A stretch of DNA of 64,000 nucleotides from Escherichia coli (GTDB taxonomy: Bacteria; Pseudomonadota; Gammaproteobacteria; Enterobacterales; Enterobacteriaceae), in assembly GCF_003334765.1 (NCBI RefSeq), contig NZ_QOWT01000002.1; one strand, given 5' to 3'. Position numbers and translations under genes: made by a program. The number at the start of each line of letters is the position of its first letter. Position 1 is the stretch's first letter. Shown here in pieces: positions 13,957 through 16,793 of the stretch. The notes beneath the pieces were generated by a model. That model was given only the letters and a program-made list of their open reading frames with translations, did no database searches and had not been told where the DNA came from.

Positions 13957-15684
13957 TCACTGACTGATGTCAGTCACACCATCCGCCAGTTCAATCAGGC
14001 GAATAAATTCCGCCCTGTAACCCTGTGGATCTTCCCCTTTTGCCTGCTGAGCCCACTGTTTGATCTGCTGCCAGGAGGTATTGTTCAGGTATTCAGAACC
14101 GCGTAACTTTTGCCCATATGCAGCTACTGCTGCGCGAAAACGCATATCTTCAGAGGGCGCGTTTATTGTTGGCCCCAGCGGGAATTCAACTAACTGACTT
14201 TCTTTTCCCTGCGGGTATTTCCAGCGAATTTTTAACCAGGCCAGTTCTTTCGTTTTGTCCGATTTCGCTAATTTGTTATCCGGGGCATAGCGTAACTTAT
14301 CAATTGATGCTTTTTGCCCGTTCAGCGTTAATTCGAATAACAACGTTATATGTTTGCCTGCGCCTATATCCCCTGCATCAACGTTGTCGTTATTAAAATG
14401 TTCCACCCGAAGTTGGCGCTTTTCATAACCAATCTGACGGTATTCCGTTACCCACGCGGGGTTAAACTCAATTTGCGCTTTGACATCTTTTGCTACGGTA
14501 ATCAACATCTGCCGCATTTCACTATTCAATACTTTCTGCGCTTCAGAGAGGGTATCAATGTAGCTGTAGTTGCCGTTACCAACATCGGCAATTCGCACCA
14601 TCATTGCCTCGTTGTAATTGCTATTCCCCACGCCAAACGTCGACAGAGTAACACCAGACTCCCGCTGTTTTTTGACCATTGATTCAATCGATTTTGGATC
14701 GTCAATGCCAACGTTAAAGTCACCGTCAGTGGCTAATAAAATGCGATTGATGCCGCCCTTAATAAACCCCTTCGTCGCCTGCTGATAAGCCAGTTCCAGC
14801 CCGGCACCGCCATTGGTACTGCCTTCGGCATCCAGCGAATCAATTGCGGCATTAATTTCCGCCTTATGACTCCCGGAGATAGAAGGCAATGCAATACGGG
14901 AGTCGCCAGCGTAGGTCACGATGGCAATGTTATCCTGCTCACGAAGTTCTTTGACCAATAATTTCAACGAAGACTGGATAAGTGGCAAACGTTCATCAGA
15001 AATCATTGAACCAGAAGTGTCGATAAGAAAGACCAGATTAGAAGCTGGTAACTCTTCACTTTTGCGATCTTTCGCCAGGATATCAACTTTCAGCAATGTT
15101 CGCTGTTCATTCCATGGTGCAGGTGCCAATTCGTAGCGCATAGCGAAAGGTATTGGCTTAGAGGCCGGAATAGATTGTTTGTCTTTGATATCCCAATCAG
15201 ACGGGAAATAATTGACTATCTCCTCCACCCGCACAGCGTCTGGCGGAGGTAACAGCCCTTGATTGAGGAAACGCCTTACATTCGCATAACTGCCAGTGTC
15301 AACGTCAAGACTAAACGTCGCCAACGGATTTTGCGCTACCTGCTTAACCGGATTATCATCGAACTGCTGGTAGCGAGCGGTTCCTGGATTTGCGATATGT
15401 GTAGCTTTTGCTTTAGCCGCTCTTGCAAATGTTGGCGCTTCCTGCAATCGCCCCTGTAAAGCCTGTTTGTCTGAATATTGTTGCACTTCTTGCTGGGCCA
15501 AGGCTTTCGCGGCGGCGGCGCTTTGCTCAGCCTCTTTTATTGCAGCTTGCTGCGCGGCAAGCACTTGCTGCTCTGTGGGAGTACTGGGTTGTTGTTGCTG
15601 ACTTTCCTTATTCTCAGGTTGCGGCCCACATCCTGACAAAATCAAACTACTCATAAGCAACATGATTATATTTTTATTTCGCAT
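13957..15684 (-). CDS. yfbK: YfbK, predicted lipoprotein with von Willebrand factor A domain
   Basis: 575-aa ORF; N-terminal signal peptide with lipobox LSGC; Gln/Ala-rich linker; MIDAS motif DTSGSM. Confidence 0.9.
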   Translation of the reverse strand: MRNKNIIMLLMSSLILSGCGPQPENKESQQQQPSTPTEQQVLAAQQAAIKEAEQSAAAAKALAQQEVQQYSDKQALQGRLQEAPTFARAAKAKATHIANPGTARYQQFDDNPVKQVAQNPLATFSLDVDTGSYANVRRFLNQGLLPPPDAVRVEEIVNYFPSDWDIKDKQSIPASKPIPFAMRYELAPAPWNEQRTLLKVDILAKDRKSEELPASNLVFLIDTSGSMISDERLPLIQSSLKLLVKELREQDNIAIVTYAGDSRIALPSISGSHKAEINAAIDSLDAEGSTNGGAGLELAYQQATKGFIKGGINRILLATDGDFNVGIDDPKSIESMVKKQRESGVTLSTFGVGNSNYNEAMMVRIADVGNGNYSYIDTLSEAQKVLNSEMRQMLITVAKDVKAQIEFNPAWVTEYRQIGYEKRQLRVEHFNNDNVDAGDIGAGKHITLLFELTLNGQKASIDKLRYAPDNKLAKSDKTKELAWLKIRWKYPQGKESQLVEFPLGPTINAPSEDMRFRAAVAAYGQKLRGSEYLNNTSWQQIKQWAQQAKGEDPQGYRAEFIRLIELADGVTDISQ

Positions 15685-15815
15685 ATAAAATCCTTTTAAA
15701 TAAACTCAGGCACCAGACATAAAATATACTCTTTGTATAATCCTGCTAATCTTAATAAAATACAATATCGAAACCCATAGCAAATAATGATTCAACAACG
15801 CAACCCATTAATAAT

Positions 15816-16793
15816 TTGCATATGAAAAAAATAATCTTTGCTTTTATTATATTATTTGTGTTTTTACTCCCTATGATTATTTTTTACCAACCCTGGGTCA
15901 ATGCATTACCGTCAACGCCCCGACACGCAAGTCCTGAGCAATTAGAAAAAACAGTTCGTTATCTTACACAAACTGTGCATCCACGTAGTGCCGACAATAT
16001 TGATAATCTGAATAGGTCCGCAGAATATATAAAAGAGGTCTTTGTCAGTAGCGGTGCCAGAGTTACCTCGCAGGACGTCCCCATTACGGGTGGCCCCTAC
16101 AAAAACATTGTTGCTGATTATGGTCCTGCCGATGGACCGCTGATTATTATTGGTGCGCATTATGACTCTGCCAGCAGTTATGAAAACGATCAATTGACCT
16201 ATACGCCGGGCGCGGATGATAACGCCAGCGGTGTGGCAGGATTACTCGAACTGGCACGTTTGTTACATCAGCAAGTACCGAAAACAGGCGTGCAGCTGGT
16301 CGCCTATGCGTCGGAAGAACCGCCCTTCTTTCGTAGCGATGAAATGGGGAGCGCGGTGCATGCAGCTTCGCTTGAGCGTCCAGTGAAATTAATGATAGCA
16401 CTGGAGATGATTGGCTATTACGACTCTGCGCCTGGAAGCCAGAATTACCCTTACCCGGCAATGTCCTGGCTTTATCCCGATCGGGGAGACTTTATTGCCG
16501 TGGTCGGCAGAATACAGGATATCAACGCCGTTCGTCAGGTAAAAGCGGCATTGTTGTCATCTCAGGATTTATCTGTTTATTCTATGAATACCCCAGGGTT
16601 TATTCCCGGTATTGATTTCTCTGACCACCTGAATTATTGGCAACACGATATTCCCGCCATAATGATTACTGACACCGCTTTTTATCGTAATAAACAATAC
16701 CACTTGCCCGGTGATACCGCAGACAGATTGAATTATCAGAAAATGGCTCAGGTAGTGGATGGTGTTATAACTTTGTTATACAACAGTAAATAA
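15816..16793 (+). CDS. yfbL: YfbL, predicted M28-family aminopeptidase with N-terminal membrane anchor
   Basis: 325-aa ORF (possible start two codons later); N-terminal hydrophobic segment; recognised as YfbL. Confidence 0.88.
   Translation: MHMKKIIFAFIILFVFLLPMIIFYQPWVNALPSTPRHASPEQLEKTVRYLTQTVHPRSADNIDNLNRSAEYIKEVFVSSGARVTSQDVPITGGPYKNIVADYGPADGPLIIIGAHYDSASSYENDQLTYTPGADDNASGVAGLLELARLLHQQVPKTGVQLVAYASEEPPFFRSDEMGSAVHAASLERPVKLMIALEMIGYYDSAPGSQNYPYPAMSWLYPDRGDFIAVVGRIQDINAVRQVKAALLSSQDLSVYSMNTPGFIPGIDFSDHLNYWQHDIPAIMITDTAFYRNKQYHLPGDTADRLNYQKMAQVVDGVITLLYNSK

Follow-up and report, generated by a model that had tools for sequence, protein, structure and literature searches.

The window analysed here, a stretch of 64,000 nucleotides from Escherichia coli, carries two divergent genes, as the original prediction had described: yfbK on the minus strand (13957..15684), encoding a 575-aa lipoprotein with vWF_A, VWA and YfbK_C domains (open reading frame, Pfam and K-12 annotation), and yfbL on the plus strand (15822..16793), encoding a 323-aa protein predicted to be a signal-anchored M28 zinc peptidase (open reading frame, Pfam, alignment and AF2/Foldseek). 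E. coli K-12 MG1655/BW25113 matches at 100% and the genes are annotated there under these names; the locus is an ordinary one that was annotated before. It lies in a variable low-GC stretch of the chromosome, with rbn/elaD on one side and the nuo operon on the other. The 323-aa RefSeq product of YfbL (P0121, 100% identical) begins at the ATG at 15822, and an alternative TTG start lies 6 nt upstream at 15816; with the ATG as the start, the divergent intergenic region (15685..15821) therefore measures 137 bp and not the 131 bp first given on the basis of the TTG, although its AT-rich composition (27.7% GC) was described correctly. This spacer includes a sigma-70-like site (CAGACA-16-TATAAT, 15714-15741, plus strand), and only the region of the yfbK ribosome-binding site and start is conserved across genera; a cross-genus comparison in search of a conserved shared operator found none. 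On the other side of yfbK, between it and the convergent elaD, a perfect 15-bp inverted repeat (13903..13936) is predicted to fold into a terminator-like hairpin (fold energy -29.6 kcal/mol, z = -8.6) and is kept in strains that lack yfbK. An Rfam scan of 13000-18000 gave no match at E <= 0.1, a PADLOC scan from yfbK to yfbP matched no defence system, and an NCBIfam scan of YfbM, YfbN, YfbO and YfbP gave no match whatever.

YfbK begins with a signal peptide and lipobox (residues 1-19; 15628..15684, minus strand; MRNKNIIMLLMSSLILSGC), in which a basic n-region and a hydrophobic h-region precede L16-S-G-C19, in agreement with the bacterial lipoprotein pattern [LVI][ASTVI][GAS]C, and G-P-Q follows. 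The motif search thus upholds the lipoprotein signal with an LSGC lipobox that had been claimed. The signal peptide is the sole hydrophobic segment of the protein, and 41 of 80 homologues also have the lipobox cysteine. Because the +2 residue is glycine and not aspartate, the sorting rule predicts that YfbK, putatively lipid-anchored at Cys19, would be exported to the outer membrane; one paper has termed it "free periplasmic" (PMC12204202). Residues 20-100 (15385..15627, minus strand) form the low-complexity Gln/Ala-rich segment of the original prediction, with Q, A, E and K making up 60% of the residues versus 28% in the remainder of the protein. This segment varies in length, concentrates the indels between enteric alleles and is the fastest-evolving part of YfbK; the AF2 model places a helix at residues 38-77 with disorder on both sides, so that a tether with a helix of about 40 residues might hold the domains that follow in the periplasm.

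These are, in the order typical of the family, the N-terminal vWF_A domain (PF12450, residues 102-199; 15088..15381, E = 2e-32), the VWA domain (residues 216-383; 14536..15039, E = 4e-22) and the YfbK_C domain (PF12034, formerly DUF3520, residues 393-568; 13981..14508, E = 6e-66), all on the minus strand, the last modelled by AF2 as a beta-sandwich with a helical bundle. The VWA domain indeed contains a MIDAS: DTSGS occupies residues 222-226 (15007-15021), and D222, S224, S226, T290 and D320, which make up a complete site, are invariant in a 30-sequence family alignment. The three-domain module presumably uses the MIDAS metal to bind a ligand. In an NCBIfam scan no family exceeded its curated cut-off for YfbK; TIGR00868 (hCaCC) scored 23 bits, far under its cut-off of 901, and the KEGG-style name "Ca-activated chloride channel homolog" therefore reflects domain similarity only. 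The family is large, with 7,150 clusters at 50% identity (E <= 1e-30).

The AF2 model of YfbK (pLDDT 83) was matched by Foldseek to ArnB, Catenulispora 4fx5, Sec24 and ITIH1. The VWA trunk, beta-sandwich and helical domain are predicted to be shared with ArnB, the Sec23-Sec24 core and 4fx5 (E = 1e-16 to 1e-18), a likeness to the ArnB/Sec23-Sec24 core motif that has been published before (PMC12852372), but sequence identity is only 13-17%, and ArnB and Sec23/24 are cytoplasmic, whereas YfbK is predicted to be exported and lipid-anchored and has an additional vWF_A domain at its N-terminus. A MIDAS-containing VWA is also found in the BatA/BatB aerotolerance proteins and in CLCA, alpha2-delta and ITIH, with which the likeness is confined to this one domain. 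Proteins of these groups give YfbK its best sequence matches among solved structures (4jdu, 3ibs, 9c4f and 6jp8).

YfbL has an N-terminal hydrophobic segment (residues 4-22; 15831..15887, plus strand) with a Kyte-Doolittle hydropathy of 3.0 over a 19-residue window and an AF2 helix predicted at residues 2-22. In all 26 members of the YfbL family alignment a hydrophobic segment precedes an invariant Q23-P24, and the alignment shows no conserved site for signal peptidase, which would fit an uncleaved helix that holds the protein in the inner membrane with its catalytic domain facing the periplasm. That domain (Peptidase_M28, PF04389, residues 95-317; 16104..16772, plus strand, E = 6e-25) is also identified by structure-sequence matches and alignment, so both halves of the initial description as a membrane-anchored M28 peptidase hold. 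Its predicted di-zinc-type ligands H113, D132, E166, E195 and H294 and catalytic E165 are invariant in the 26 sequences. The fold is shared, at TM 0.6-0.7, with the M28 aminopeptidases of Vibrio/Aeromonas proteolytica (AAP, 1amp), Legionella (LapA) and Streptomyces griseus (SGAP), along with the motifs HxD, GADDNASG, EE and YH..D. YfbL differs from these enzymes in having about 20% identity to them and no NCBIfam equivalog at cut-off, in carrying a membrane anchor in place of a cleaved signal or propeptide, and in using the invariant Glu195 where they have Asp.

Whereas YfbL is most likely an aminopeptidase, its AF2 model (pLDDT 86) resembles both M28 aminopeptidases and glutaminyl cyclases, and we considered that it might instead be a type II (animal-like) cyclase that forms pyroglutamate from the Gln at the N-terminus of substrates that are periplasmic proteins or lipoproteins. 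The Bacteroides cyclases 7d1d and 4fuu (TM 0.66-0.73) are its best Foldseek matches, narrowly ahead of aminopeptidases, and sequence matches to the two groups are similar in E-value, so structure and sequence scores fail to separate them. The metal-binding motif points the other way: GADDNASG is the wild-type aminopeptidase GADDDASG save for the third Asp and is the same as in the D118N mutant chain 3b3t, while cyclase 4fuu has GANDGASG. Moreover, none of the five ligand positions of the aminopeptidase type varies within the family, and the best NCBIfam match is the aminopeptidase LapA, although neither it nor any other family exceeded its curated cut-off. We therefore regard cyclase activity as unlikely. 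The His of the HxD motif was also tried as a discriminator and was dropped, as the Bacteroides cyclase has this His too.

An initial search for YfbK homologues brought up nothing but E. coli clusters with hardly any differences, and we therefore used a representative search that yielded 80 loci from diverse bacteria; the contigs of the two closest non-enteric homologues (P0241, P0242) span just 2.2-2.6 kb and are uninformative for context. At 47 of the 80 loci an ECF sigma ORF is found no more than 500 bp away, compared to a single one in 1.03 Mb of flank further out, a background density that underestimates ECF sigma genes in general because these same adjacent sigma genes had served to build the HMM; NCBIfam confirmed their sigma identity. 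The arrangement follows the architecture of the YfbK homologue: of the 17 homologues whose N-terminus is cytoplasmic and that have a TM helix (within the 56-150 range), 15 have the sigma gene immediately upstream, and it is immediately downstream in 21 of 41 homologues of the lipoprotein type, 18 of which have no adjacent sigma gene. The usual genomic partner of the YfbK family is thus an ECF sigma factor, as is partly known from the fused VWA-DUF3520 anti-sigma form published as group ECF289 (Casas-Pastor et al. 2021, PMC7826278).

The anti-sigma factors of the ECF289 type share the extracytoplasmic vWF_A, VWA and YfbK_C module with YfbK, and over residues ~100-570 the E. coli protein shares 43-53% identity with homologues whose genes lie beside ECF sigma genes. 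It has neither the cytoplasmic anti-sigma domain nor the TM helix of the ECF289 type but a lipoprotein signal peptide instead, and the sigma HMM found no sigma-like ORF in the window or at two further enteric loci (L011, L012). Gammaproteobacterial three-gene clusters, for example in Pseudomonas (L013), Colwellia (L024) and Shewanella (L056), encode a lipoprotein built like YfbK, with signal peptide, lipobox, variable linker and core, followed by an ECF sigma factor and then by a membrane protein with a single TM pass. In the Pseudomonas cluster this last gene has no significant Pfam domain; its position and single TM helix make its product a candidate anti-sigma factor. Both downstream genes are missing from the enteric locus, where the convergent elaD, a cheV-like gene or rbn is found instead. 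In most relatives the module would be the component of an ECF sigma/anti-sigma system that senses outside the cytoplasm. There it is joined to the anti-sigma factor in one protein, or it is a lipoprotein whose gene lies directly upstream of those for the sigma factor and the single-pass membrane protein. Enteric YfbK may be an orphaned binding or sensor module since this partner is lacking.

The association of yfbK with yfbL is, in contrast, narrow. A YfbL-family HMM detected a YfbL-type neighbour at only two of the 80 YfbK loci, both enteric, and not at the other 78; none of four non-enteric YfbL homologues (49-56% identity), each in a different genomic context, has a VWA gene within 8 kb. 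Adjacency is limited to a few Enterobacteriaceae, the divergent pair occupying one chromosomal site in Escherichia, Superficieibacter and two further enteric contigs. Even there the genes part company: Salmonella has yfbK and no trace of yfbL, and many E. albertii carry an intact yfbK next to a frameshifted yfbL.

Within E. coli, we surveyed 5,426 complete genomes, scoring a gene as present when covered at >=80% and reporting raw counts that ignore kinship. By this measure yfbK is present in 2,514 genomes and yfbL in 3,293, such that ~46% have both, ~15% (~780 genomes) have an intact yfbL without yfbK, and ~38% have neither gene intact. Deletion has removed yfbK from ~54% of the genomes in at least two different events, two of which leave yfbL intact. 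One deleted segment (13997..15552), which comprises most of yfbK, is absent from BL21 and strain 3702594 with identical endpoints, and BL21-type strains additionally lack 16083-16408 within yfbL. In all, ~2,060 genomes combine a yfbK deletion with a separate yfbL deletion, which could mean that once one of the two is lost, selection on the remaining one is relaxed. Among 60 records sampled at even spacing, 28 had both genes, nine had yfbL only, 22 had a yfbL remnant only and one had none; no record had yfbK with yfbL deleted. Some strains carry IS insertions inside yfbK, and alleles of the locus differ by 7-20% within the species. The region is thus a presence/absence polymorphism in E. coli, and the two genes are lost independently of each other.

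Where intact, yfbK and yfbL are alike under purifying selection. For yfbK, dN/dS is 0.09-0.135 in the core and 0.41-0.53 in the tether, and the intact reading frame, the retention of invariant residues and the low core value argue for continuing purifying selection; for yfbL it is 0.13-0.25, with values of 0.25 and 0.33 in two strains that lack yfbK. The phenotype reports that we found treat the genes separately. Deletion of yfbL confers resistance to phage N4 that is complemented, in a study whose text and hit lists do not contain yfbK, and the N4 phenotype in the literature belongs to yfbL and yfbO. Weak phenotypes in Keio screens and an LldR gSELEX peak inside the gene have been reported for yfbK, and of the two genes yfbL alone is listed as induced by MMS.

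We conclude, with a probability of roughly 70%, that yfbK and yfbL, neighbours in a variable region of low GC content, are cell-envelope genes with separate transcription, each of them dispensable. A more pessimistic reading is that E. coli yfbK is a decaying, functionless remnant of a lost ECF sigma system and that the variability of the region brought it next to yfbL by chance. The sigma partner missing from the window, the high frequency of deletion, the IS insertions and the disruption of yfbK in Salmonella Typhimurium lineages (PMC3853940; bioRxiv 10.1101/2020.09.09.288845) are all consistent with it, but a gene in decay would hardly show the preserved MIDAS and core described above, lipoprotein-type homologues elsewhere often do without an adjacent sigma gene as well, and the Keio phenotypes, however weak, speak against a lack of function. 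We judge this reading improbable and retain that of two separate, individually dispensable genes.

The original prediction had proposed that a binding or adhesion protein and a protease form one envelope unit under a shared divergent promoter region. In such a unit YfbK could, for example, present or recruit a substrate of YfbL. Several enteric genera, with proteins 62-83% identical, do retain the divergent adjacency, both proteins are predicted to be periplasmic, yfbK never occurs in the 60-record sample without an at least largely intact yfbL, and the majority of genomes with a yfbK deletion also have a separate yfbL lesion. Nevertheless, on co-occurrence the proposal does not withstand the refutation test that had been set with it. 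Neither adjacency beyond close relatives nor joint presence and absence was found, the latter judged from raw counts that ignore kinship: the pairing is missing from nearly all YfbK loci and from every non-enteric YfbL context, each gene occurs alone in entire lineages or many strains, yfbL has dN/dS values of 0.25 and 0.33 in the two yfbK-less strains, the spacer is unconserved past the yfbK start region, and no N4 phenotype has been reported for yfbK. Since adjacency does not reach beyond a few enteric genera and each gene is lost independently of the other, the two probably do not form one functional unit, and we consider the proposal quite unlikely. Less likely still is that the sigma-orphaned YfbK was rewired to YfbL in an envelope pathway controlling the phage N4 receptor, in which case phage selection would underlie the deletions, the IS insertions, the divergent alleles and the length-variable linker.

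The main value of these results is that a plausible-looking yet unsupported module of a VWA protein and a protease can be struck off. YfbK and YfbL are most likely both periplasmic, dispensable and separately transcribed, and YfbL is most likely an aminopeptidase, for which a phenotype in phage N4 susceptibility has been reported in its own right. Because the locus is polymorphic in its presence, results obtained on yfbK and yfbL in K-12 are not transferable to BL21, O157:H7 and many other strains. For the YfbK family at large, the ECF sigma factor as usual partner provides a concrete, testable idea of the role of the module elsewhere and should aid its annotation.

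The genes at ~11-20 kb of the window are arranged as in E. coli K-12 (elaA-rbn-elaD-yfbK-yfbL-yfbM-yfbN-yfbO-yfbP), and the 3.1-kb yfbK/yfbL stretch is 100% identical to the K-12 MG1655 and BW25113 records, in which yfbK is annotated as encoding a vWA domain-containing protein and yfbL an M28 family metallopeptidase; the locus is ordinary and already annotated. The GC content of yfbK (13957-15684, minus strand, 575 aa) is 47% and that of yfbL (15822-16793, plus strand) 45%, compared to 51.4% for the window. The yfbL start that matches the RefSeq product is the ATG at 15822 rather than a TTG at 15816, and therefore the spacer between the divergent genes, AT-rich as originally described (27.7% GC), measures 137 bp and not 131 bp. 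A perfect 15-bp inverted repeat at 13903-13936 (-29.6 kcal/mol, z = -8.6), located where elaD and yfbK converge, resembles a terminator hairpin used by both genes, albeit without a clear T-run, and is still present in strains without yfbK. NCBIfam and PADLOC returned zero matches for YfbM, YfbN, YfbO and YfbP.

The original prediction that yfbK and yfbL form one functional unit is unsupported: co-occurrence broke down in a survey of YfbK loci, within the enteric clade and among E. coli genomes, with each gene also occurring alone. Scanning one genome per species yielded 80 loci encoding YfbK homologues in many phyla (53 with at least 3 kb of flank on each side), and only two, from Escherichia albertii and Superficieibacter electus, had matches to a YfbL-family HMM. 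Two enteric contigs (YfbL identity 68% and 62%) carry the divergent pair at the same site between rbn and the nuo operon, and no VWA/YfbK gene lies within 8 kb of the next YfbL relatives (49-56% identity), found in four different genomic contexts. Each gene also occurs without the other inside the enteric clade. In one Salmonella enterica locus, an 888-bp gap separates nuoN from yfbK, which is followed by a cheV-like gene and rbn, and tblastn over 13.8 kb detected no remnant of YfbL; some E. albertii genomes carry both genes, and an intact yfbK beside a frameshifted or interrupted yfbL is seen in the type strain and in the commonest context (18 similar places). On one enteric contig (L003, 8978-10900), a 199-aa protein and a 440-aa AAA_21/AAA_15 ATPase replace yfbM between yfbL and nuoN and may be a small defense-like insertion.

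Within E. coli, yfbK is covered to at least 80% in 2,514 and yfbL in 3,293 of 5,426 complete genomes. Of 60 records sampled at even spacing, 28 carry both genes, nine carry yfbL alone, 22 retain just a remnant of yfbL and lack yfbK, and one has neither. A link between the genes is favored by the lack of any case of yfbK with a deleted yfbL in this sample and by the yfbL lesion also present in most yfbK-deleted genomes; viewed without phylogeny, these co-loss patterns may stem from a small number of ancient events in a region that is dispensable. The spacer holds no element conserved across genera, except for the ribosome-binding/start region of yfbK. The segment 13997-15552 is missing with identical endpoints in BL21 and an unrelated strain, BL21-type strains carry a separate second deletion (16083-16408) within yfbL, a different deletion in an avian strain took yfbK and most of elaD and kept yfbL, and yfbK is broken by IS elements in some strains. 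The dN/dS of yfbL is 0.25 and 0.33 in two yfbK-less strains versus 0.25 between two strains with both genes. YfbK and YfbL are most likely two independent, dispensable and, as predicted from sequence, periplasmic proteins.

The entire rbn-nuoN interval (12675-19926) varies among E. coli strains (strain comparisons L001, L002, L098 and L099): it comprises just yfbK-yfbL-yfbM in ST131 and E. albertii, K-12 has elaD and yfbN/O/P as well, and in BL21 an ISEcB1 element occupies the place of yfbN/O/P. The BL21-type remnant of the spacer and 5' yfbL (L001, 3220-3728) is only 79.5% identical to K-12 (15555-16082), and synonymous divergence between K-12 and ST131 alleles, 0.23 for yfbK and 0.125 for yfbL, is high for E. 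coli. Because of this divergence, the haplotypes appear to be old or imported.

The features first ascribed to YfbK are all present by sequence and Pfam: an LSGC lipobox (Cys19, followed by Gly-Pro-Gln), a Gln/Ala/Glu/Lys-rich linker (residues 20-100; 15385-15627) and a VWA domain (216-383) with the DTSGS motif (222-226). Pfam also places vWF_A (102-199) and YfbK_C (393-568) on either side of VWA. Searched against 1.84 billion cluster representatives, YfbK has 7,150 relatives at E <= 1e-30, in which residues ~100-570 are conserved and the N-terminal parts vary in length and kind; across 30 aligned diverse members, the MIDAS residues D222, S224, S226, T290 and D320 never vary. The AlphaFold2 model (pLDDT 83) has a confident core and places a long helix (38-77) in the Gln/Ala-rich region with disorder on both flanks. 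The nearest PDB structures to the core by Foldseek, archaeal ArnB, Catenulispora 4fx5, inter-alpha-inhibitor heavy chain 1 and Sec24, share its VWA trunk, beta-sandwich and helical domain, a likeness published before (PMC12852372). The linker behaves as a tether and not as a specific interaction surface, since indels among enteric alleles concentrate there (147 of 196 gap-containing columns fall within the first 170 alignment columns) and it evolves faster than the core (dN/dS 0.41-0.53 versus 0.09-0.135). Most E. coli alleles other than that of K-12 are 581-588 aa long; relative to them, an Ala/Lys-rich repeat (AAAKAAADAKAK) is 6-9 residues shorter in K-12 YfbK, and a Superficieibacter homologue (528 aa) is missing the bulk of the linker.

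The assignment of YfbL as an M28 peptidase with an N-terminal anchor held up (Peptidase_M28, residues 95-317, and a strongly hydrophobic N-terminal segment). Among 26 family members (49-100% identity), H113, D132/D133, E165, E166, E195 and H294 are invariant and fall on the metal ligands and catalytic Glu of solved M28 aminopeptidases, with Glu195 in the position of a canonical Asp. The hydrophobic segment is kept as a feature, not as a sequence, and an invariant Q23-P24 pair directly follows it; the alignment shows no conserved site for signal peptidase, and the N-terminus is therefore likely an uncleaved signal anchor. The AF2 model (pLDDT 86) fits M28 aminopeptidases and bacterial type II glutaminyl cyclases to a similar degree; YfbL carries an aminopeptidase-type GADDNASG motif, unlike GANDGASG of the cyclase 4fuu, and we favor a putative aminopeptidase, with a cyclase as the less likely reading.

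Clustering the neighbors of the 80 YfbK homologues revealed a single dominant family, an ECF sigma factor (confirmed by NCBIfam, with TIGR02937 above cut-off, and NF009166 above cut-off at the Pseudomonas locus), with a sigma ORF within 500 bp at 47 of the 80 loci versus one across 1.03 Mb of flank lying farther away. Its placement tracks the architecture of the homologue: immediately upstream on the same strand in 15 of 17 homologues with a cytoplasmic N-terminus and TM helix (where measured, mostly with a 4-bp overlap), immediately downstream and followed by a single-pass membrane protein in 21 of 41 lipoprotein-type homologues, and divergent and upstream in Bacteroidetes. The fused form has been published as the ECF289 group's anti-sigma factor (PMC7826278), whose architecture differs from that of E. 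coli YfbK, a lipoprotein-type homologue. In Pseudomonas (L013, 9716-12740), Colwellia (L024, 10001-13474) and Shewanella (L056, 9980-13243), a YfbK-like lipoprotein gene precedes an ECF sigma gene on the same strand, and the product of the third gene (230-334 aa) crosses the membrane once, has an Ala/Gln/Glu-rich periplasmic tail and lacks any Pfam domain; these clusters resemble the fused ECF289 anti-sigma factor split into separate genes. Because no sigma-like ORF occurs in the 64-kb window or in the other enteric loci, the enteric gene is best described as a putative orphaned copy of a sensor/binding module.

The following published reports of phenotypes, regulation and gene disruption contain no link between yfbK and yfbL. 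Separate deletions of yfbL and yfbO were each reported to confer complemented, N4-specific phage resistance, and yfbK is missing from the text and hit tables of that study (bioRxiv 10.1101/2025.09.29.679331); yfbO (18543-19019) lies ~1.7 kb from yfbL, with yfbM and yfbN in between. Deletion of yfbK is listed for low conjugation recovery in one Keio screen and for loss of rifampin-induced persistence in a second, both without follow-up; an LldR gSELEX peak lies within yfbK, yfbL is on a list of MMS-induced genes, and yfbK is among the genes disrupted in some Salmonella Typhimurium lineages. As far as we infer their localization, ligand, enzyme activity and expression, YfbL would be an inner-membrane-anchored M28 zinc exopeptidase, and YfbK a lipid-tethered MIDAS binding module that has lost the ECF sigma system served by its relatives.
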